Shown: positions 2,693 through 59,290 of the stretch, piece after piece
Layout of the letters: the number at the start of each line of letters is the position of its first letter
Numbering within the stretch: position 1 is the first letter of the stretch
DNA from: a virus
Taxonomy: Duplodnaviria; Caudoviricetes
Length of the DNA stretch: 64,000 bases
Direction: 5' to 3' (one strand)
IMG/VR virus record: IMGVR_UViG_3300037400_006508
Span: 32,001 to 96,000 of that record
Program-made: the position numbers and the translations under genes
The notes under the pieces: model-generated
The model's input: the letters and a program-made list of their open reading frames with translations, nothing else
Database searches by the model: none
Told to the model about the DNA's origin: nothing

Positions 2693-3082
2693 ATGTACAC
2701 GGACTTCAAATCGCTGAGGAAGGCGTACGACAACGACGAGCTGAGCGTGTGGGAGTACCAGAAGTACTTCTCCGGCCTTTTCGGTACCGTCAACCCGGGG
2801 TACCCGGATTTCAGCGACCAATACGTCAAATCCGTCTGCAAGGCGGCCGATCCGGACCGAAAAGGCTCGCCCAGCCAGCCTAGATGGATCATCGTCATGT
2901 TCGAATGCAACACGTACGGTGAGATAGTCCGTCCGCTTGGTGCGTCGTCGTTCCGAACGAAGACCGACGCCATGTCCTTCTTGAACAGGAAGCAGCAGGA
3001 AGGCGGCAGGTTCATAACATCGTCGTCGCTTGTGTCCGAGTACAGAAGATACGACATGTTCAAGGAGGACAAGCTGCAATGA
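2693..3082 (+). CDS. hypothetical protein
   Basis: ORF fills gap; ATGA overlap with next gene. Confidence 0.7.
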   Translation: MYTDFKSLRKAYDNDELSVWEYQKYFSGLFGTVNPGYPDFSDQYVKSVCKAADPDRKGSPSQPRWIIVMFECNTYGEIVRPLGASSFRTKTDAMSFLNRKQQEGGRFITSSSLVSEYRRYDMFKEDKLQ

Positions 3083-4515
3083 GCCCATTCATGGAAAGGC
3101 GGAGCGAACGGGTGTCAAAGCTCTATGAGTCCCTCCTTTCCATGGAGGGAATGACGGCATGCTTTCCCACGAAGTGGTGGCCGAACGCCGACATACCGGA
3201 ATTCGAGCCGCTGCATCCCGAGGTGTGCACGGACGTCGACAAGATGTGGAGGTACGCCCTGACGGCGCCATACTGCCAGGGATCCACCGTGAAGATATTC
3301 GACAGGAAGTCCGTGCCAGCCATGGAATCGGTGAACACCGACTGGGAGTCGATCCTGCAGGGGCTGAACCATGTCGGACGGCCGTCCGGCGGAGGCGAGT
3401 TCATGCGTCCTACCGGAAGGTGGACCATGGACCTGGTCAATACGCCGGACGGCTACAGGATCCTGGAGGCCGCGCATGCCCTGCACCACATGAGGGAGCT
3501 GGCATGCGACGGGCCGGACGGGTTTCTGGAATGCCTGGCCGAGATCGCGTTCGCAAAGCGGTACGGAGTCACGTTCTGGTGTCCGACGGAGGAGGACATA
3601 CGAAACAGGTTCGACGGGTCGTACAGGCACGCCGGATCCTGGTTCGACTCCGAAGGCGCCAGGATGGTGGTGTCCACCAACATACGAAAGCCGTGGCTGT
3701 CCGTAGGCGCGGTCGGACAAGGAGGGCTCGAGTTCGGAAGGACAAGGGTCGCGATACTGTCCGGCATACACCTGGAGCCGCAGCCGTGGAGTACGCGTGA
3801 GGACAACCCGAACGACGCGGACGAAACGTGGCTGGAGATGAACAGATGGTCGTGCCTGCCGTCCATCGTGACGCTGTGCGGCTGGATGTTCGTCGACGAG
3901 CTGCTGAAGATGCCGCTTGTCGGAAGATACGGGGATTCCAGCCGCGGAGACGTGATGTTCACGTGCCCCGTTACAAGGCTGGACGGTCCGTCGACCATCG
4001 ACGAGTACATGTCGGAGCGGTCCGTGCTGGAGGACAACGACCGAGGTATCTGGAAGCTGGGATCCTTTATGGAACACCGGCTTCCGGTCATCGAGCGTTG
4101 CATACCGCCGTTCCCGTGCATGGACTGCTTCAGGCTGAACATGGCATCTGAAGGCGCTCCTACGAGGCCCATGCATGCAAGGCCGGAAAAGGGCTCCGGC
4201 GATGCCGAGGCGGACGCCGAATGGAAGGCGTACGACGACAAGGTCGCAAAGATCGTCCGTGTGGTAGAGAAGGCCTGCGCGTTCCACGACATAAGGTTCA
4301 AGTACAAGACCGGCGGCGGTGCCGAGCGAAGGTCGAGAAGATCCAAGTGGCGCAAGCTAAAGGGCCTTTCGGAGAAGATAGACAGCTCGATGCGAAGGGT
4401 TGAACGTGCATACGCCAAAAGCTTCTATTCAAAAGCGGAGGCAGAGATGGAGGCTGTAGACGCAATGCTGGAAGAAATGACTAAAACGATAGGAGGAACT
4501 AGTGAAAACGATTGA
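3079..4515 (+). CDS. hypothetical protein (478 aa)
   Basis: Long ORF with typical codon usage; no motif confidently recognised. Confidence 0.75.
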   Translation: MSPFMERRSERVSKLYESLLSMEGMTACFPTKWWPNADIPEFEPLHPEVCTDVDKMWRYALTAPYCQGSTVKIFDRKSVPAMESVNTDWESILQGLNHVGRPSGGGEFMRPTGRWTMDLVNTPDGYRILEAAHALHHMRELACDGPDGFLECLAEIAFAKRYGVTFWCPTEEDIRNRFDGSYRHAGSWFDSEGARMVVSTNIRKPWLSVGAVGQGGLEFGRTRVAILSGIHLEPQPWSTREDNPNDADETWLEMNRWSCLPSIVTLCGWMFVDELLKMPLVGRYGDSSRGDVMFTCPVTRLDGPSTIDEYMSERSVLEDNDRGIWKLGSFMEHRLPVIERCIPPFPCMDCFRLNMASEGAPTRPMHARPEKGSGDAEADAEWKAYDDKVAKIVRVVEKACAFHDIRFKYKTGGGAERRSRRSKWRKLKGLSEKIDSSMRRVERAYAKSFYSKAEAEMEAVDAMLEEMTKTIGGTSEND

Positions 4516-13921: not shown

Positions 13922-14236
13922 ATGAAAGAACATTTCGACTGCAATCTTCCCGGGCTTCTGGAAGAGGTGCTGAACAATCCGACCTGCGCGATCCTGAAGG
14001 TACCGATCAACATAACGAAAGGAATCCTGGCGGAGCTCGCGCATCTCGCCATCGAGATCGACGACGACCGTCTGCACATCATGATGCTGCGACTCGGATT
14101 GTACGATCTGTCCGCAGCGGAACGTGTAAAGAAAATAGACGAGTTGAGAGAAAAGGTTCGCAAGGACCTGTACAAGCGCATTGGCATAAAGTCAAGCGAA
14201 ATTTCCAAGAAGGAGGAAAACAATGCCAAGCTGTAA
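13922..14236 (+). CDS. hypothetical protein
   Basis: ORF with typical codon usage. Confidence 0.7.
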   Translation: MKEHFDCNLPGLLEEVLNNPTCAILKVPINITKGILAELAHLAIEIDDDRLHIMMLRLGLYDLSAAERVKKIDELREKVRKDLYKRIGIKSSEISKKEENNAKL

Positions 14237-14714
14237 GTACTGCAACGAGCCGATGACGCGTAAGAACGACCATCTGAAGGTGTCGTTCTACATGTGTCCG
14301 AAGTGCGGAGCCCGCGGCCCGTCCGTGAAGATGGACCACCTTGGCTGGAAGGAGGAGCTCGATGCGAAGACCCTTGGCCAGAGCATCGAAGTCAAGGCAA
14401 CTTCCGCGGAGGACGATCTGCGAAAGCGCAATGCCGTGCTGTCCGCCCGATGCTCCAGGCTCAAGGCCTGCGAGCTTCCGAACAACGCCAAGCTCGAGCG
14501 CGACGTCAACAACAGGATCCGCAATCTGCAGGCAAACCGGAAGGAACTGAACAAGCACGCGTACCTCAGGGATCTGGCCCATCTCTACAAGCAGAAGGCT
14601 ACGTTCCTGGAGTACAAGACCGGGTTCGAGAAGGAGTTCGCAGGCCTGAGGCAGCAGATTCGCGAGAACAAGCGAAAGCTTTCGGAGTTGAAAAAATCGA
14701 AGTCCCGAGTATAA
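14223..14714 (+). CDS. zinc-ribbon plus basic coiled-coil protein
   Basis: CKYC...CPKC; AAGGAGG RBS. Confidence 0.75.
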   Translation: MPSCKYCNEPMTRKNDHLKVSFYMCPKCGARGPSVKMDHLGWKEELDAKTLGQSIEVKATSAEDDLRKRNAVLSARCSRLKACELPNNAKLERDVNNRIRNLQANRKELNKHAYLRDLAHLYKQKATFLEYKTGFEKEFAGLRQQIRENKRKLSELKKSKSRV

Positions 14715-14715
14715 T
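14688..14715 (+). promoter_or_regulatory. sigma70-like promoter
   Basis: TTGAAA-N16-TATAAT. Confidence 0.65.
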
Positions 14716-14721
14716 GTATGC

Positions 14722-14962
14722 CTCCATGCGGTTCAACGGTTGCCGCATGGAACCCGCCGGGCTGGAAGTGGCCTGATTGACTGCGTGCCCCTGCAGGAGA
14801 GCGGATGTGGGGACTGGGGGACGGAGCACCGTGCAGCGCATGCGGCCGTCGACTCTTTCGAGGAGATGAATGCCCTCGGACATTGATGACCGCCAAGGCG
14901 AAGGTGGTGGGGTCCTTTGTAACCCGAGACAATGCGCACGCCGGCACTCCCGCAGGGGCATG
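14722..14962 (+). ncRNA. candidate structured non-coding RNA of unknown family
   Basis: Starts just after the promoter; hairpins 14723-14751 and 14758-14775; long-range helix 14786-14799 with 14947-14960 enclosing further stems. Confidence 0.5.
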
Positions 14963-14973
14963 GGGGATTTCTG

Positions 14974-15002
14974 TTGACAACCTCCTGGATTGCCTGTAGT
15001 GT
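14974..15002 (+). promoter_or_regulatory. sigma70-like promoter
   Basis: TTGACA-N17-TAGTGT. Confidence 0.6.
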
Positions 15003-15026
15003 ATGGCGGCAACCCAGGAGGTTCCG

Positions 15027-15455
15027 ATGAAGTTCAAGATACCGAGGCTGGACAGCCCTCTCAACCGCACCAAGAAGAAGGAGGTCTTCAACGACAGACT
15101 TCCACGCGAATGGAAGAAGCTCAAGCAGCTTTTCGAGGCTGAGCTGAAATCGTACGAGAAGGACTGGTCCGTCGAGGACTGGAGGGAGAAGGCGGGGCTG
15201 TACGCCGACATGGTTGCCGTGAAGACGGCCGTCTGCGACGAGGACTGCTTCCACATGCAGATGGAGGACGGTACCATGAATCCTGACACCAAGGACAAGA
15301 TGGGGTACGCTGCACGTCTGGCCAACAGACTGGTGAAGGAAGGGGCCGGTTGTATCCTGCAGTCCGTCAAGGATTCGTTCTCCGTTGGAATGTCCTGGCA
15401 ATCTCGTTCGGGTGATCCGGACGAGATTGTTCAGGTTATAGAGATCGGGTTCTGA
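15027..15455 (+). CDS. hypothetical protein
   Basis: AGGAGGT RBS before ATG 15027. Confidence 0.75.
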   Translation: MKFKIPRLDSPLNRTKKKEVFNDRLPREWKKLKQLFEAELKSYEKDWSVEDWREKAGLYADMVAVKTAVCDEDCFHMQMEDGTMNPDTKDKMGYAARLANRLVKEGAGCILQSVKDSFSVGMSWQSRSGDPDEIVQVIEIGF

Positions 15456-15460
15456 GCGAA

Positions 15461-15481
15461 GGGAGGCCCGTCGGGCCTCCC
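15461..15481. repeat. perfect GC-rich inverted repeat (hairpin, no U-tract)
   Basis: GGGAGGCCCG-T-CGGGCCTCCC. Confidence 0.7.
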
Positions 15482-15933
15482 GAGCGCCATATTGACGCCG
15501 TAGGCAGCCGCGAAGCGGTTGGCATATTGCTCCTGCGCAACGACGGCCGCAGGCCGGCGGGTGCGAGATGCGTATTTGGAAAGGTGTAGGGAAACCTTGG
15601 TTTCCCACAGTGAAGAAGAGAAGAAAGGGAAGGAGAGGGATGAGAGAGTATTATAATAGGGGTACGGGGGAAGAGAAGAGAGGGAGCAGGGAGGACCTCG
15701 GGAAGGAGGGGAAGGAACGCTTGAAAAATTATTATGCGTCAAGTCCCTGTTTTCCAGTATGTTGTTACGCTCTAGCTTCAGGTTATTAACAACCTGTTTA
15801 TAAGTCTCTCCATGCTGTTGTAGGTTAAGTGTATGCATTTTCAGGTTATAATTACTTGAATGGGCCAGTTTCGTCATTCACACCAGGGGTGGTTCCCGGG
15901 TGGCTGGCCCAACCGCAAACAAAAGGAGAAACC
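15482..15933. other. non-coding region with purine tract, AT-rich block and palindromes (candidate origin or regulatory hub)
   Basis: G/A-rich tract ~15612-15717; AT-rich 15721-15860; palindromes 15779-15796 and 15840-15860; TATAAT at 15847-15852. Confidence 0.5.
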
Positions 15934-16737
15934 ATGAGCAAGATCGGACTAGCAGCCGCATTCCACCATTACGACGAGGACGGGGCGTTCATCCCCGCTT
16001 CGCGTCTCGTGGAGGGCGGACCGTTCGACGGCCAGGTGGCGCCGCTGATCGGCGCAATCGTCGCGTGGGACGGACACGCGGCTACGTGGGGCTTCATCAA
16101 GTACGAGGCCCCGCGGATCTTCCCCCGCTACGAAGGCGGGGCCTGGGTCATCGACCCCAGGAAGCCGAACCGGGCCGCGAACGTGGCCACGACCCGGGTG
16201 GGCACCGTGCACTGCTCCGTGTGCGGACAGTCCGTCAAGACTCCCGTCAAGGGGTGCCGGGACGAAAAGGTCAAGTGTCCGCTGTGCGGAGCGGACAGGA
16301 CCTCTGTCGCCGTCGTCAAGGAGAACTCGCACGAGTTCGACGAGATGTTCGGTGACATCAAGGACGCCATGCTCGGCTACGCGAAGACCGCGGCGGCCGA
16401 GGACGTCCCGTTCCAGTTCCCGCTCGTCGTCTGCGGGAGCTCCACGCTGAAGCCCGGCGATTCCCTCGTCCCACCGGACGCTCAGGGGATCGCCCAGAGC
16501 CACGGCCGAGCCCTGGTCGCCCTCCGTTCGATGGCGGGGGGACTCAACGACCTGGTCAACGCCGGCACGGACGACGACACGGACCTCTCCATCATCCCCG
16601 GGATCTACTACGGTTCCATGAGCGAGGAGGAGGTCCGCAACGGCGCCACCTGGGGCGAAGGTGCCGCCGGCTTCTATCTCCGGATGAGGCTTCCGGAGAA
16701 GAAGCGCTGCGCTCCGTTCCATTCCTTCCGATACTAG
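15934..16737 (+). CDS. hypothetical protein with zinc ribbon
   Basis: AAAGGAG RBS before ATG 15934; CSVC...CPLC. Confidence 0.75.
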   Translation: MSKIGLAAAFHHYDEDGAFIPASRLVEGGPFDGQVAPLIGAIVAWDGHAATWGFIKYEAPRIFPRYEGGAWVIDPRKPNRAANVATTRVGTVHCSVCGQSVKTPVKGCRDEKVKCPLCGADRTSVAVVKENSHEFDEMFGDIKDAMLGYAKTAAAEDVPFQFPLVVCGSSTLKPGDSLVPPDAQGIAQSHGRALVALRSMAGGLNDLVNAGTDDDTDLSIIPGIYYGSMSEEEVRNGATWGEGAAGFYLRMRLPEKKRCAPFHSFRY

Positions 16738-17372: not shown

Positions 17373-17735
17373 ATGAGCTTCAGGTTTTCCACCGCGGGCA
17401 ACCGCATCAACGACGAGCTGTACGCTCGTCTCAAACAGGCTCGCCGCATCGGCCTTCACGGCGAGCTTGTCTTCGTCAAGGCCAGGTCCAGCCACCGGTT
17501 CGAGGTGCACTTCTCCGACGGGACCCAAAAGGTCCTCGCCGGGGAGGTCCGACTCATGAACCTGCTCCAGAGGGACATCGAGGCGGAACCTGCCCGTCGT
17601 ATCCTCTGGAAGGCCTCGCATCCGGGAGGTTCCGACCAGACGGTCGGGATCGACGAGCGGATTGTCGAGACCTCGGTTTCGGCCGAGACCGACCAGGATC
17701 TGGCGCATCACCGCAAGGTAGGCGCGAACTCCTGA
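17373..17735 (+). CDS. hypothetical protein
   Basis: ORF ending just before terminator. Confidence 0.65.
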   Translation: MSFRFSTAGNRINDELYARLKQARRIGLHGELVFVKARSSHRFEVHFSDGTQKVLAGEVRLMNLLQRDIEAEPARRILWKASHPGGSDQTVGIDERIVETSVSAETDQDLAHHRKVGANS

Positions 17736-17737
17736 GG

Positions 17738-17769
17738 AAAGGGGGCGGGTACGCCCGCCCCTTTTTCTT
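17738..17769 (+). terminator. rho-independent terminator
   Basis: GGGGCGGG-TACG-CCCGCCCC followed by TTTTTCTT. Confidence 0.85.
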
Positions 17770-17808
17770 AGCTATTGGACGATTTGAAAATTCCCCACGG
17801 AAAAGGTG

Positions 17809-17837
17809 TTGACATAGAATCGTTGTTGTGCTACTGT
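17809..17837 (+). promoter_or_regulatory. sigma70-like promoter with extended -10
   Basis: TTGACA-N17-TACTGT, TGn before -10, A-rich upstream. Confidence 0.7.
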
Positions 17838-17868
17838 CAGTGCCAACCCACCAATCACATCCATCGAT

Positions 17869-25890: not shown

Positions 25891-26301
25891 ATGGCCGGCC
25901 TGCGCCACCGCAGGATGGCCAGGCTGCTCTCCGCGTTCCCGGACATGGACTCCGTGAGGACGATGTGGGATCTGTGCCTGGCCATCCTCGGGGACGTACA
26001 GGCGCGCCTGGACGGCCATTCCTACGCTCGCCACCGCTGCGAGAGGATGGTCTGGGCGGCCGAGAGGGAGGGGCTGATACGGAGGCTCCCCACGACCATG
26101 CGGTCGAAGGCGGTACCCCCGGAGCGCAGGCACCGCGGCGAGAACGCGTACCGCATGCTGCCGGAGGGGCTCCGCTGGCTGGGAGAGCAGCTCTCGTACG
26201 AGAGGCACCTGTCCAGGATGGAGGAGCTCAAGGAGATAACCCGTGCGAAGCGAACGGCCCGCCGCACGGTCGCAACGAAGGCCGGGAGTAAACACACATG
26301 A
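25891..26301 (+). CDS. possible winged-helix DNA-binding protein
   Basis: AEREGLIRR...YRMLPEGLRWL resembles a wHTH wing; start uncertain. Confidence 0.5.
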   Translation: MAGLRHRRMARLLSAFPDMDSVRTMWDLCLAILGDVQARLDGHSYARHRCERMVWAAEREGLIRRLPTTMRSKAVPPERRHRGENAYRMLPEGLRWLGEQLSYERHLSRMEELKEITRAKRTARRTVATKAGSKHT

Positions 26302-35404: not shown

Positions 35405-35434
35405 TTGACCTGTCGCGCATGCATGCTTTATAGT
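35405..35434 (+). promoter_or_regulatory. sigma70-like promoter for the tRNA
   Basis: TTGACC-N18-TATAGT, 11 nt upstream of tRNA. Confidence 0.6.
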
Positions 35435-35445
35435 GTATTGAGCAC

Positions 35446-35522
35446 TGCGGGGTAGAGCAACCCGGTAGCTCGGCAGATTCATAATCTGTAGGTTGTTGGT
35501 TCAAATCCAACCCCCGCAACCA
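35446..35522 (+). tRNA. tRNA-Met(CAT), initiator-like body
   Basis: 77-nt cloverleaf: acceptor TGCGGGG/CCCCGCA, anticodon arm GCAGA-TTCATAA-TCTGT, T-loop GGTTCAAATCC, encoded CCA. Confidence 0.93.
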
Positions 35523-35547: not shown

Positions 35548-38211
35548 ATGGCCGCAACACAGAACGCAAATCCATTCTCCGGAGGGGGATACGACTCGAT
35601 GCCGGATGCCTACAAGTATCCTAATCCGTTCTGCGACATAGCAAGCTTCTACACGCCGAACAATCTGAGCGACGCGTTCGAGTACATGGAGTTCCTGTTC
35701 CTTACGATGCCGCCGTTCATGGCGGTCACGAACAGGGTCGTTTCGTACTTCCTGACGGATATCGAGGTCAACGACGTGTCCGACGACGTTCGCGACAAGT
35801 ACGAGGACATCTTCGACGACAAGCTGCACATGATCCAGCGCCTGCAGGACATAGGCAAGGACTACTTCTGCTTCGGCGGGGACACGAAGGTCGTCACGCA
35901 CGAGGGATCGGTGCCGATACGGGATCTGGCCGGCAGGACCGTCCAGGTCCTTTCCATAGACGGGAAGTGGCATCCGGCCAGGTTCAGGTCGTACGGCGTG
36001 CAGCCGACGGTCGAGATAGAGTTCGGGACCGGAGTCAGGGTCAGGGCGACGAAGGAGCACGAATGGTGGGTGTCCAGACGGTACGGTTCGGAGCTGTCCA
36101 AGGTCACCACGGGCGAGATCAGAAAGTCACATCTAGTCCCGTACCAGCAGCCGCCAAGGCCCCGTCAGGGCAACAATTACGTCAGGGGCGCCCTCCACGG
36201 AATCGTCTTCGGGCTGAACAAGCCGGTGCTTGCGGGACATGAGCTCGAGTTCCTCGAGAACTTCGAGGAGCAGAGCGGGCTGAAGGCCGACAAATCCATG
36301 CGGAAGATACCGGATCCGAAGGAGAAGGCCGAGTTCTGGTACGGATTCTTCAGCGGAATAGCGGCCGTGTGCGGCTACTTCCAGGGGTCGTCCAGGCAGT
36401 TCTTCATCACGAACCGCAGCGAGAAGGCCCTGAAGGCCCTCAAGGCGGGAGCCGCGAAGGCCCACATCAGGACCAGGGCCGTCGTCAAGCGCAGGATCTT
36501 CAACGACAACCTCCGCTACTACCTTCCGATCAACCTGGCCGATCTTCAGGAGGACGATTTCCTCTGCGGGGACCAGAAGGAGTCGTTCGTCAAGTTCAAG
36601 ACGCAGCCCCACCGCAAGTACACGACGATCCGGTCGATCGGAACGGAGTGGAAGGAAGAGGAGGTGTTCTGCTGCGTCGAGCCGGATACGCATACGTTCA
36701 CGCTTGACGGCGGCGTGGTGACCGGAAACTGCTACGGAAACTCGTTCGTATCGCTGTACCTGCCGTTCGAGAGGTACCTGTGCTGCCCCAAATGCTTCAC
36801 GCAGTACAAGATAGACAATCTGAAGTACGAGTTCGACTCCAACAACGGGGAGTTCAAGGCCTATTGCCCGAAGTGCAAGGACAAGATGGTCATGAAGCGC
36901 GTCGACAGGCGCCTCCACGACCCTTCCAAGGTGCAGGTGATTCGCTGGAACCCGAAGCGCATCAAGCTGAAGGTGCACGACATCTCGGGCCAGGTCAAGT
37001 ACTACTACAAGCTGGACCCGAAGTTCGTGGACCATATCAGGAAGGGAGATCCGTTCTACCTCAACACGACCCAGTGGGGCTTCGTCGAGACGTGTCTCGG
37101 CAAGAAGTCCGGCTCCGAGGGCGAGCATCTGTTCGAGTTCGAGGACGACCAGATCTTCCATCTCAGGGACACGGTGTTCGCCGGTCTGTCCGACAAGATA
37201 AAGGGGTGGGCCATTCCGCCCCTGCTTCCGTATTTCAAGCTGGCGTACTACATCCAGCTCATGCGCCGCTACGACGAGGCGATCGCGCTGGACTTCATCG
37301 TACCTTTCCGGATCCTGTACCCGCAGGGGCAGGCCCCGGGCGGGCAGGACCCGCTCACGATGGTGTCCATGCAGACCTTCGTCGCCGCCATGTCGTCCAT
37401 GGTGGAGAAGAAGCGCAAGAACATGACCTCGATCGAGGTGTCGCCGTTCGCGATCGGCTACGAGATGATCGGCGGCGAGGCGCAGCAGCTTTCGCCGAAG
37501 GACAACATCCAGAACGCGGAGCAGGAGCTGCTCAACGCGATGGGATTCCCGCAGGAGCTGTTCGCGGGCACGCTTTCGCTGCAGGCCGCCCCGGTGGCCC
37601 TTCGTCTGTTCGAGCGCGAGTGGAACCCGTTCGTGGACGGAATGAACTCCGTTCTGCAGTGGATGACGGACGCGATCGCCAAGTACTTCATGTGGGACCA
37701 GGCGAAGGTCAGGCTGACGCCGATCACGCTCGCCGACGACATGGAGAAGAAGGGCATCATGCTGCAGATGGCCGCCGGCCAGCAGCTGTCCAACCAGACG
37801 GCGTTCCGTGCTCTCGGGTACGACTACCTCAAGGAGCAGGAGCGCATCATCCAGGAGCAGCAGGACGTCCAGAAGCTCCAGCAGAAGGCCATGGCGGAGG
37901 CCCAGGCCGAGCAGGCCAACGGCGCCATGGGCGGCTCGGGCGAGGGCGGCGCGGACGACAGCGGCATGAACGGTCCCGGCGGCAGCGTCGGGGCCACGCC
38001 AGGCTCCATCGAGGAGCAGGCGTCCCAGATCGCGCAGAACCTCGTCATGGCGAACAACCCGACGCAGTCCAGGCAGACGCTCGCTTCCGTCGAGCAGACG
38101 AATCCGACGCTGTACGCCATGGTAAAGGCCAAGATGCAGGAGATGCGGCAGCAGCTGTCGTCGGACGGGAAGCAGATGATGATACAGCAGATGCAGCAGC
38201 AGGGCGGGTAG
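35548..38211 (+). CDS. phage portal protein containing an intein
   Basis: Spliced junction DYF-CYGNSFV resembles the portal D..xYGNxF motif; GWAIPP and LNAMGFPQELF motifs; Gln/Gly-rich tail; heads the structural cluster. Confidence 0.8.
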   Translation: MAATQNANPFSGGGYDSMPDAYKYPNPFCDIASFYTPNNLSDAFEYMEFLFLTMPPFMAVTNRVVSYFLTDIEVNDVSDDVRDKYEDIFDDKLHMIQRLQDIGKDYFCFGGDTKVVTHEGSVPIRDLAGRTVQVLSIDGKWHPARFRSYGVQPTVEIEFGTGVRVRATKEHEWWVSRRYGSELSKVTTGEIRKSHLVPYQQPPRPRQGNNYVRGALHGIVFGLNKPVLAGHELEFLENFEEQSGLKADKSMRKIPDPKEKAEFWYGFFSGIAAVCGYFQGSSRQFFITNRSEKALKALKAGAAKAHIRTRAVVKRRIFNDNLRYYLPINLADLQEDDFLCGDQKESFVKFKTQPHRKYTTIRSIGTEWKEEEVFCCVEPDTHTFTLDGGVVTGNCYGNSFVSLYLPFERYLCCPKCFTQYKIDNLKYEFDSNNGEFKAYCPKCKDKMVMKRVDRRLHDPSKVQVIRWNPKRIKLKVHDISGQVKYYYKLDPKFVDHIRKGDPFYLNTTQWGFVETCLGKKSGSEGEHLFEFEDDQIFHLRDTVFAGLSDKIKGWAIPPLLPYFKLAYYIQLMRRYDEAIALDFIVPFRILYPQGQAPGGQDPLTMVSMQTFVAAMSSMVEKKRKNMTSIEVSPFAIGYEMIGGEAQQLSPKDNIQNAEQELLNAMGFPQELFAGTLSLQAAPVALRLFEREWNPFVDGMNSVLQWMTDAIAKYFMWDQAKVRLTPITLADDMEKKGIMLQMAAGQQLSNQTAFRALGYDYLKEQERIIQEQQDVQKLQQKAMAEAQAEQANGAMGGSGEGGADDSGMNGPGGSVGATPGSIEEQASQIAQNLVMANNPTQSRQTLASVEQTNPTLYAMVKAKMQEMRQQLSSDGKQMMIQQMQQQGG
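35869..36729 (+). mobile_element. intein (287 aa) with degenerate LAGLIDADG-like domain
   Basis: Block A CFGGDTKV, block B RATKEHEW, blocks F/G VFCCVEPDTHTFTLDGGVVTGN then C+1. Confidence 0.9.
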
Positions 38212-58930: not shown

Positions 58931-59290
58931 ATGTACAGGATAAACGAGTTCTTGACCCCCAGGGAGAGGGCCGAGGCGATAAGGGTCGGCGCTCTTCGCA
59001 AACTTGCTTCTTTGGGCATGACGCCGTCCGATTTTTCCCGCCAGATGAAAAAATCGGCCCTTGCCGGGGCCGCAGCCGGCGTCGGGGCTGCCGCGGCCGG
59101 CAAGATGGCGCCGCTTCTGTCCCCGAAGACGCTGTTTTCGCTTGCCATCTACCTTGGAATTCCGCTTGGGGCGCTGAGCTACGGCCTAAAGAGCTCGTTC
59201 TCCCCGGAGACAAGCGCAAACAGCGATCTGAAGACCAAGCTTGACGAGATGAACGACATCGTCGAGCAGTACAGGAGGCAGCTCGGCTAA
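58931..59290 (+). CDS. Gly/Ala-rich membrane-like putative virion protein with leader-like segment
   Basis: IRVGALRKLASLGM...MKKSA followed by two hydrophobic segments. Confidence 0.75.
   Translation: MYRINEFLTPRERAEAIRVGALRKLASLGMTPSDFSRQMKKSALAGAAAGVGAAAAGKMAPLLSPKTLFSLAIYLGIPLGALSYGLKSSFSPETSANSDLKTKLDEMNDIVEQYRRQLG

Follow-up and report, generated by a model that had tools for sequence, protein, structure and literature searches.

A candidate lineage-specific promoter and structured leader before a putatively masked gene in an uncultured phage

The DNA analysed here, referred to as the window, is a stretch of 64,000 nucleotides (nt) that corresponds to bases 32001-96000 of one virus record (IMGVR_UViG_3300037400_006508; Caudoviricetes; 143,525 bp), estimated to be 95% complete. 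Within the window, the segment 14688-15034 spans the junction between two protein-coding genes, the upstream gene 14223-14714 and the downstream gene 15027-15455 (gene 15027). The reading that we favour, tentatively, is that this segment is a lineage-specific, non-coding promoter and structured leader of gene 15027, which would be translationally masked, and that it is not a separate RNA gene. The coordinates of the features are collected in Table 1.

The following course of events is proposed. Promoter P1 would start an RNA near 14722. The 5' terminus of this RNA would fold into a 10-bp hairpin, which probably guards the end against decay, and a domain of ~185 nt that is shut by a 13/14-bp long-range helix would follow. 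The RNA would read through into a hairpin of ~28 bp that buries the Shine-Dalgarno (SD) sequence and the AUG of gene 15027. This masking hairpin also contains a putative second promoter, P2, and transcripts from P2 would begin at the 3' arm, without the masking strand. Long transcripts, either from P1 or from upstream read-through, would be silent for gene 15027, and short P2 transcripts would be translated. What the analysis establishes is the sequence features, their predicted stability and how rare they are in this genome; the firing of both promoters, the start and end sites of the transcripts, and masking in vivo we infer.

The masking hairpin is the strongest structure in the region. It lies just outside the promoter-driven, structured RNA of ~240 nt that was described in an earlier note on this DNA, and it is absent from that note. 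The core arms are complementary at 15 of 16 positions (-26.5 kcal/mol, top 0.35% of 50-nt windows). The extended form, of ~28 bp, has a predicted energy of -31.2 kcal/mol and pair probabilities of 0.84-1.0. The AGGAGG that acts as the SD for ATG 15027 is in the 3' arm, and the AUG itself is covered by the extension. When 164 roughly called + strand genes that have an SD are ranked by occlusion of their initiation regions, gene 15027 comes second (mean unpaired probability 0.14 compared with a median of 0.48). When a transcript from 14722 is folded, the SD-to-AUG region has an unpaired probability of 0.14, compared with 0.44-0.49 in a transcript from 15009.

The masking hairpin holds the -35 element of P2 in its 5' arm and the -10 element in its loop. 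The predicted +1 (~15009) falls on the first bases of the 3' arm. Because P2 sits in the 5' arm and loop, its transcripts would lack the masking arm. Only three sites of the form TTGACA-N16-18-TAnnnT occur on the + strand of the genome, and P2 is one of them, congruent with the claim in the earlier note that the next gene has its own promoter at 14974; its -10 element retains just the three most conserved positions. A site of the same type (TTGACA-17-TACTGT) is present at 17809 on the + strand, where it comes after a textbook terminator at 17725.

P1 is the best sigma-70-type match and the sole 11/12 match in the 143.5-kb genome. In the same genome-wide scan, the + strand contains 12 sites that match at 10/12 or more positions, compared with ~4.6 in shuffles. 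A 10/12 site (TTGACC-18-TATAGT; 35405-35434, +) ends 12 nt 5' of the phage tRNA gene at 35446. Promoters of the P1 type are plausibly used by this phage, judging from this site, which also suggests that the tRNA gene has its own promoter. The final nine codons of the upstream gene overlap P1. In the gap that follows (14715-15026, ~310 nt), there is coding signal in no frame, the GC content is 65% compared with ~56% locally, and the A-over-T skew of the phage genes is lost. Both the promoter and a gap of ~310 nt between credible genes had been claimed in the earlier note, and both are borne out, the flanking genes having codon scores of 0.84 and 0.93.

The 5'-terminal hairpin (14723-14751) begins 0-2 nt from where P1 is predicted to start transcription. 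It has pair probabilities of 0.92-1.0 and an energy of -19.9 kcal/mol (top 4% of 50-nt windows). As previously drawn (14723-31/14743-51), its pairs have a probability of ~1, and this is also the case in a transcript extended to 15060. The same is true of the long-range closing helix predicted at 14786-99/14947-60, where 13 of 14 pairs are Watson-Crick. This helix hides AGGAG 14795-99 and AUG 14805. The base of the rod alone (~26 bp) contributes -44.4 kcal/mol. The interior is predicted as one irregular rod of many 1-7-bp helices with average local stability, and local folds within 14760-14960 reach no more than the 13th-55th percentile among 50-nt windows. The smaller hairpins of the earlier note are less well retained. 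The G-U-rich hairpin at 14758-75 appears in the minimum free energy (MFE) structure of a 248-nt transcript, but has a probability of 0 in the longer transcript, where it is replaced by pairing with 15045-15058. The interior hairpin ACGG/CCGT has a pair probability of ~0, and the other three named interior hairpins are not in the global MFE structure and are at most local window folds (ACCGCC/GGTGGT). The + strand folds better (-115.8 kcal/mol, z -2.39) than the - strand (-98.5 kcal/mol, z -1.43), as had been expected from the G-U pairs.

Table 1. Features of the segment and its surroundings (window coordinates; SD, Shine-Dalgarno; ORF, open reading frame; aa, amino acids).
Feature	Coordinates	Strand	Description
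Upstream gene	14223-14714	+	163 aa, Zn-ribbon N-terminus and coiled coil; codon score 0.84
Promoter P1	14688-14715	+	TTGAAA-16-TATAAT; 11/12 sigma-70 consensus; predicted start near 14722
5'-terminal hairpin	14723-32/14742-51	+	9 Watson-Crick and 1 G-U pairs, 9-nt loop
G-U-rich hairpin	14758-14775	+	Weak, 7 bp, three G-U pairs, GAAG loop
Rod-like domain	14781-14965	+	~185 nt; closed by long-range helix 14784-14799/14947-14962
64-codon ORF	14805-14999	+	AGGAG 5 nt before ATG; possible regulatory upstream ORF
Masking hairpin	14966-15034	+	Core arms 14979-14994/15008-15023; anti-SD CCTCCT 14982-87
Promoter P2	14974-15002	+	TTGACA-17-TAGTGT; -35 14974-79, -10 14997-15002; predicted start near 15009
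Downstream gene	15027-15455	+	142 aa; codon score 0.93; SD AGGAGG at 15016-21
Long-range helix	2973-3071	+	14/15 bp; 3' arm holds AGGAGG of gene 3079-4515

A census of helices in the whole genome (13 or more Watson-Crick matches, no more than one mismatch, span up to 248 nt) returned 13 helices. Two of these, the closing helix and 14979-14994/15008-15023, are in this ~310-nt gap, where ~0.03 would be expected by chance from the census counts. The census also includes two helices in the UG27 arrays and one textbook terminator. Four further perfect or near-perfect inverted repeats of 13-16 bp, with 51-66 nt between the arms, are present on the + strand at 876-970, 25912-25988, 59130-59225 and 82415-82498; at least the first is in a coding region (ORF 855-1250). 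The concentration of helices in the gap argues against a reading of the segment as functionless filler at a recombination junction, in which a 7.4-kb block was lost or replaced, the promoter was left behind and the helices of the 240-nt part are fortuitous. The start of a hairpin at the predicted +1 of P1 argues in the same direction, and the fit of the masking hairpin to the SD, the AUG and P2 is too precise for accident. We regard the filler explanation as unlikely; it draws its support from the ordinary stability of the rod interior and from the relatives of this phage.

In the relative G001 (176.8 kb), the homologue of the upstream gene is 73% identical and the genome is collinear with the phage over 11500-20000. 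Homology fades at ~14680-14690, at the start of the P1 -35 element, and resumes inside gene 15027. Where the gap lies, G001 carries ~7.4 kb of other genes, and the module of promoter and leader is therefore lineage-specific. This break between two collinear flanks counts in favour of filler. Relatives of the upstream gene are 72-94% identical to it. Among those with 85-94% identity over the body of the protein there are at least four unrelated C-termini, one of them, in P0005 and P0006, a Cys-rich extension of 54 aa. The 3' end of the upstream gene (14660-14714; proteins P0004-P0009) is, judging from these protein sequences, a recombination hot spot because close relatives have at least four different C-terminal junctions; these junctions also favour the filler explanation. 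The relatives of the upstream gene further include P0007, P0009 and a near-identical Logan contig of 1735 bp. The contigs of P0007 and P0009 and the 1735-bp Logan contig probably carry the element; the comparison made here covers G001-G006. Other searches returned no counterpart. The element has no match among GenBank phages (blastn) and no paralogue in its own genome, and pattern scans of viral and prokaryote contigs with the closing helix and the SD hairpin gave 0 matches. A search of JGI metagenomes by alignment of the upstream gene returned G001 again and no further source. A remnant of the G001 genes at this site was considered and rejected, the best tblastx match between the gap and the 7.4-kb block having an E-value of 0.026.

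No credible terminator is present between P1 and gene 15027; the one terminator-like site has a stem of 6 pairs, a loop of 8 nt and a ATTTCTGTTG tail, which is a poor U-run. Canonical terminators are present elsewhere in the phage, at 17725 and 89093, the former (region 17725-17850, +) consisting of a G/C stem followed by TTTTTCTT. Because there is no credible terminator between them and canonical ones occur elsewhere, read-through from P1 into the gene is the default expectation. This bears on a second alternative, that P1 makes a discrete phage non-coding RNA (ncRNA) of ~240-310 nt with a role in trans, be it as decoy, as scaffold or as antisense RNA. Such a stand-alone small RNA would have P1 as its promoter and no credible intrinsic terminator of its own; its 3' end would lie near 14966, where the weak terminator-like site is, or would result from Rho-dependent termination in the untranslated gene with later trimming to the hairpin that ends at 15034. 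It is consistent with the driving of a sequence without coding signal by the strongest promoter in the genome, with a 5'-end hairpin that is followed by a strong closing helix, with the raised GC content and lost A-over-T skew, and with the better folding of the + strand. Against these stand the poorly determined interior of ordinary local stability, a global z-score within the genome background, the lack of a canonical terminator, the lack of a second copy or homologue in the collections reached, and the lack of an Rfam family even at E-values up to 10.

In the Rfam 15 scan of the whole window, the sole match is the tRNA at 35446, which leaves the element without a family. At E-values up to 10, region 14500-15200 has three chance-level matches (13-17 bits, with thresholds of 50-80), none of which is a riboswitch or a phage RNA. 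ARAGORN finds 0 tRNA or tmRNA genes in 14000-16500. The stand-alone ncRNA of the earlier note (decoy, scaffold or ribozyme) is thus left without support, as it has no family, no credible terminator and a fold at the genome background. We consider a discrete, trans-acting ncRNA unlikely. A broader proposal seems to us quite improbable, namely that P1 makes a new lineage-specific structured RNA (~240-310 nt: the 5' hairpin and the closed 185-nt domain) that acts alone, for example as a decoy or an RNase III-processed regulator, or that the region is a two-lock switch with an upstream ORF (uORF). On present evidence, no new RNA class is added, the 240-nt part being without relatives or a standout fold.

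The two-lock cascade rests on ORF 14805-14999. In this explanation, the long-range helix locks the SD and AUG of a regulatory uORF, which would be accessible only as long as the nascent RNA does not yet include the 3' arm, 150 nt downstream. By melting the anti-SD arm and terminating in the hairpin loop, 28 nt before AUG 15027, a ribosome that reads the uORF would turn gene 15027 on by coupling. The layout has several fitting parts: AGGAG is 5 nt before ATG 14805 and both are within the closing helix, and the uORF stop codon (TAG 14997-99) is in the loop of the masking hairpin, with ATG 15003 3 nt further on. A comparable arrangement is found in helix 2973-3071, which likewise hides the AGGAGG of gene 3079 and has its 5' arm in the preceding gene. 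This 5' arm is ~100 nt upstream, inside gene 2693-3082, in a classical translational-coupling layout.

The ORF itself does not look coding. Its GC content is flat across codon positions (0.64/0.59/0.62, compared with 0.54/0.35/0.77 in real genes here), and its score is 0.147, compared with 0.58-0.94 for the neighbouring genes. The lack of codon periodicity counts against the two-lock cascade. The frame score is not above that of stop-free shuffles (p 0.19), and 12% of shuffles would be expected to contain an open frame as long as this one. SD-like strings are also frequent in this G-rich stretch, for example GAGGAG just before ATG 14870. The ORF has no homologue among 5.8 billion proteins, no match in Pfam or PHROG, no match beyond chance in the protein atlas, and was not called by the source gene caller. 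We regard the two-lock cascade as quite improbable. The earlier note had offered, as its alternative, an mRNA whose ribosome-binding site is locked by long-range pairing. This alternative is nearer to the sequence than the stand-alone ncRNA. The predicted burial of AGGAG and AUG 14805 stands, and the SD and AUG of gene 15027 are predicted to be buried more strongly; ORF 14805 as the message does not stand, as it is without a coding signature.

Several points weigh against the preferred reading of the segment as promoter and leader of a masked gene. The -10 element of P2 matches at 3/6 positions, which is below the scan rule of at least 4/6. The fold of the 240-nt part is within the genome background: control windows have a mean z of -1.03 (sd 1.5; 248-nt windows, n=49), and 10 of the 49 have z of -2.39 or lower, so that ~1 in 5 folds as well. 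The G001 homologue of gene 15027, at 38% identity, has an ATGA overlap with a preceding small membrane-protein gene and is without a leader. The element is not in G001-G006, relatives that were found via the upstream gene and the portal, where matches are at chance level. The preferred reading does not account for a dedicated and very strong P1 at a distance of just 286 bp upstream, and gives the long-range helix no necessary role. For the 240-nt upstream domain, candidate roles are those of an RNase III site, of a kinetic lock for the 64-codon uORF and of a free RNA, or it may have none.

Other identities were tried and rejected. A type I toxin-antitoxin system (hok/sok-like) is not congruent with the leader ORFs (64, 48 and 35 aa), which are without a hydrophobic segment; promoter-like sites on the antisense strand of the region are only 9/12 matches. 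An orphan ncRNA unit of the UG27 reverse transcriptase (RT) type should carry the motif ATCRAAC-N-TACAG-N-AAC, which is common to the UG27 array units near their 3' ends; a search of the window for it that allowed as many as 3 mismatches gave 0 matches. For a riboswitch or conserved-aptamer leader, the SD hairpin resembles an expression platform; no known aptamer matches, and the homologue in G001, the only one whose DNA was reached, is without a leader. An insertion like a miniature inverted-repeat transposable element is not indicated, as the inverted repeats have no other copy (own genome and two closing-helix pattern scans) and no target-site duplication is visible in the flanks. As to an operator network, TCCATGCGG, the arm of the palindrome, is found elsewhere just in single copies, all within genes, and the arm sequence of the 5' hairpin is palindromic nowhere else.

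The genes of this phage are mainly on the + strand, and the coding DNA is skewed (A>T and G>C) with ~55-58% GC. Pfam and PHROG searches with the upstream gene return just weak Zn-ribbon matches and no meaningful assignment. The downstream gene has no match in Pfam or PHROG and no match beyond chance in the protein atlas, and a single-sequence AlphaFold model of its product is of low confidence (predicted local distance difference test score, pLDDT, 38). HMMER searches of 1.8 billion representatives return five distant homologues that are 32-47% identical. Of these, only the homologue in G001 turned up in viral contigs; none is in the prokaryote genome collection or in the relatives G002-G006.

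The non-coding block 15456-15933, after gene 15027, has a positional counterpart in G001 (L021 2406-2600), where there are ~600 nt without a shared gene between the homologues of gene 15027 and gene 15934. The block also has TATAAG and then CTCCATGCTGTT at 15798-15819, which recalls the succession of TATAAT and CTCCATGCGGTT at 14710-14733. The portal gene (35548-38211, +; 887 aa, PHROG 2739) appears to contain an intein-like insert at roughly aa 108-395, which runs from '...DYFC|FGGDTKVV...' to '...GGVVTGN|CYGNSF' and has 64% identity in G001.

Parts of the segment resemble several known systems. The UG27 RT ncRNA units of the same phage also have a closing stem around an internal folded domain; unlike them, the element is without the shared 3' motif and is ~23-27 kb from the arrays. 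Stem-loops at the 5' terminus stabilise bacterial mRNAs, for example in the ompA leader. The 10-bp hairpin within 0-2 nt of the predicted transcription start is similar.

Long-range locks on the ribosome-binding site are found in the 5' untranslated region of the MS2 maturation gene and in hok mRNA, where a 5'-3' fold-back is combined with mok coupling. As in these, an SD and AUG (14795-14807) pair with a distant segment, and an upstream frame ends beside the start of the next gene. Unlike in these, the partner arm is 150 nt downstream in the same ORF, and the 64-aa peptide is not hydrophobic and so is not a hok-type toxin. An antisense RNA gene, as in hok, was not identified here.

In the phage lambda N leader, pL and nutL are followed by a large RNase III-sensitive hairpin just 5' of the N start. 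The segment shares with it a strong promoter, a small 5' hairpin, a long imperfect duplex (~26 bp, -44 kcal/mol here) and a structured initiation region. It differs in that boxA and boxB were not identified here and in that an RNase III site is suggested by duplex length alone. Lambda N is an antiterminator, and nothing marks the 142-aa protein here as one.

The T4 genes e, soc, 49 and I-TevI have a start site that is masked on long transcripts, and an internal promoter gives short transcripts that can be translated (PMC3014915). As in T4, the SD and AUG of gene 15027 are predicted to be sequestered in a stable helix on long transcripts, and the putative inner promoter is in the DNA of the 5' arm. 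There is no sequence homology to the T4 genes, and the inner promoter is sigma-70-like, whereas that of T4 is a late TATAAATA box. A strong dedicated promoter and a closed domain of 240 nt directly upstream are further differences. If the preferred reading is correct, the module would have arisen at a recombination junction and the timing of gene 15027 would matter to the phage. The T4 device of a masking hairpin with an inner promoter would then extend to an unrelated, uncultured 143-kb phage with promoters of the sigma-70 type.

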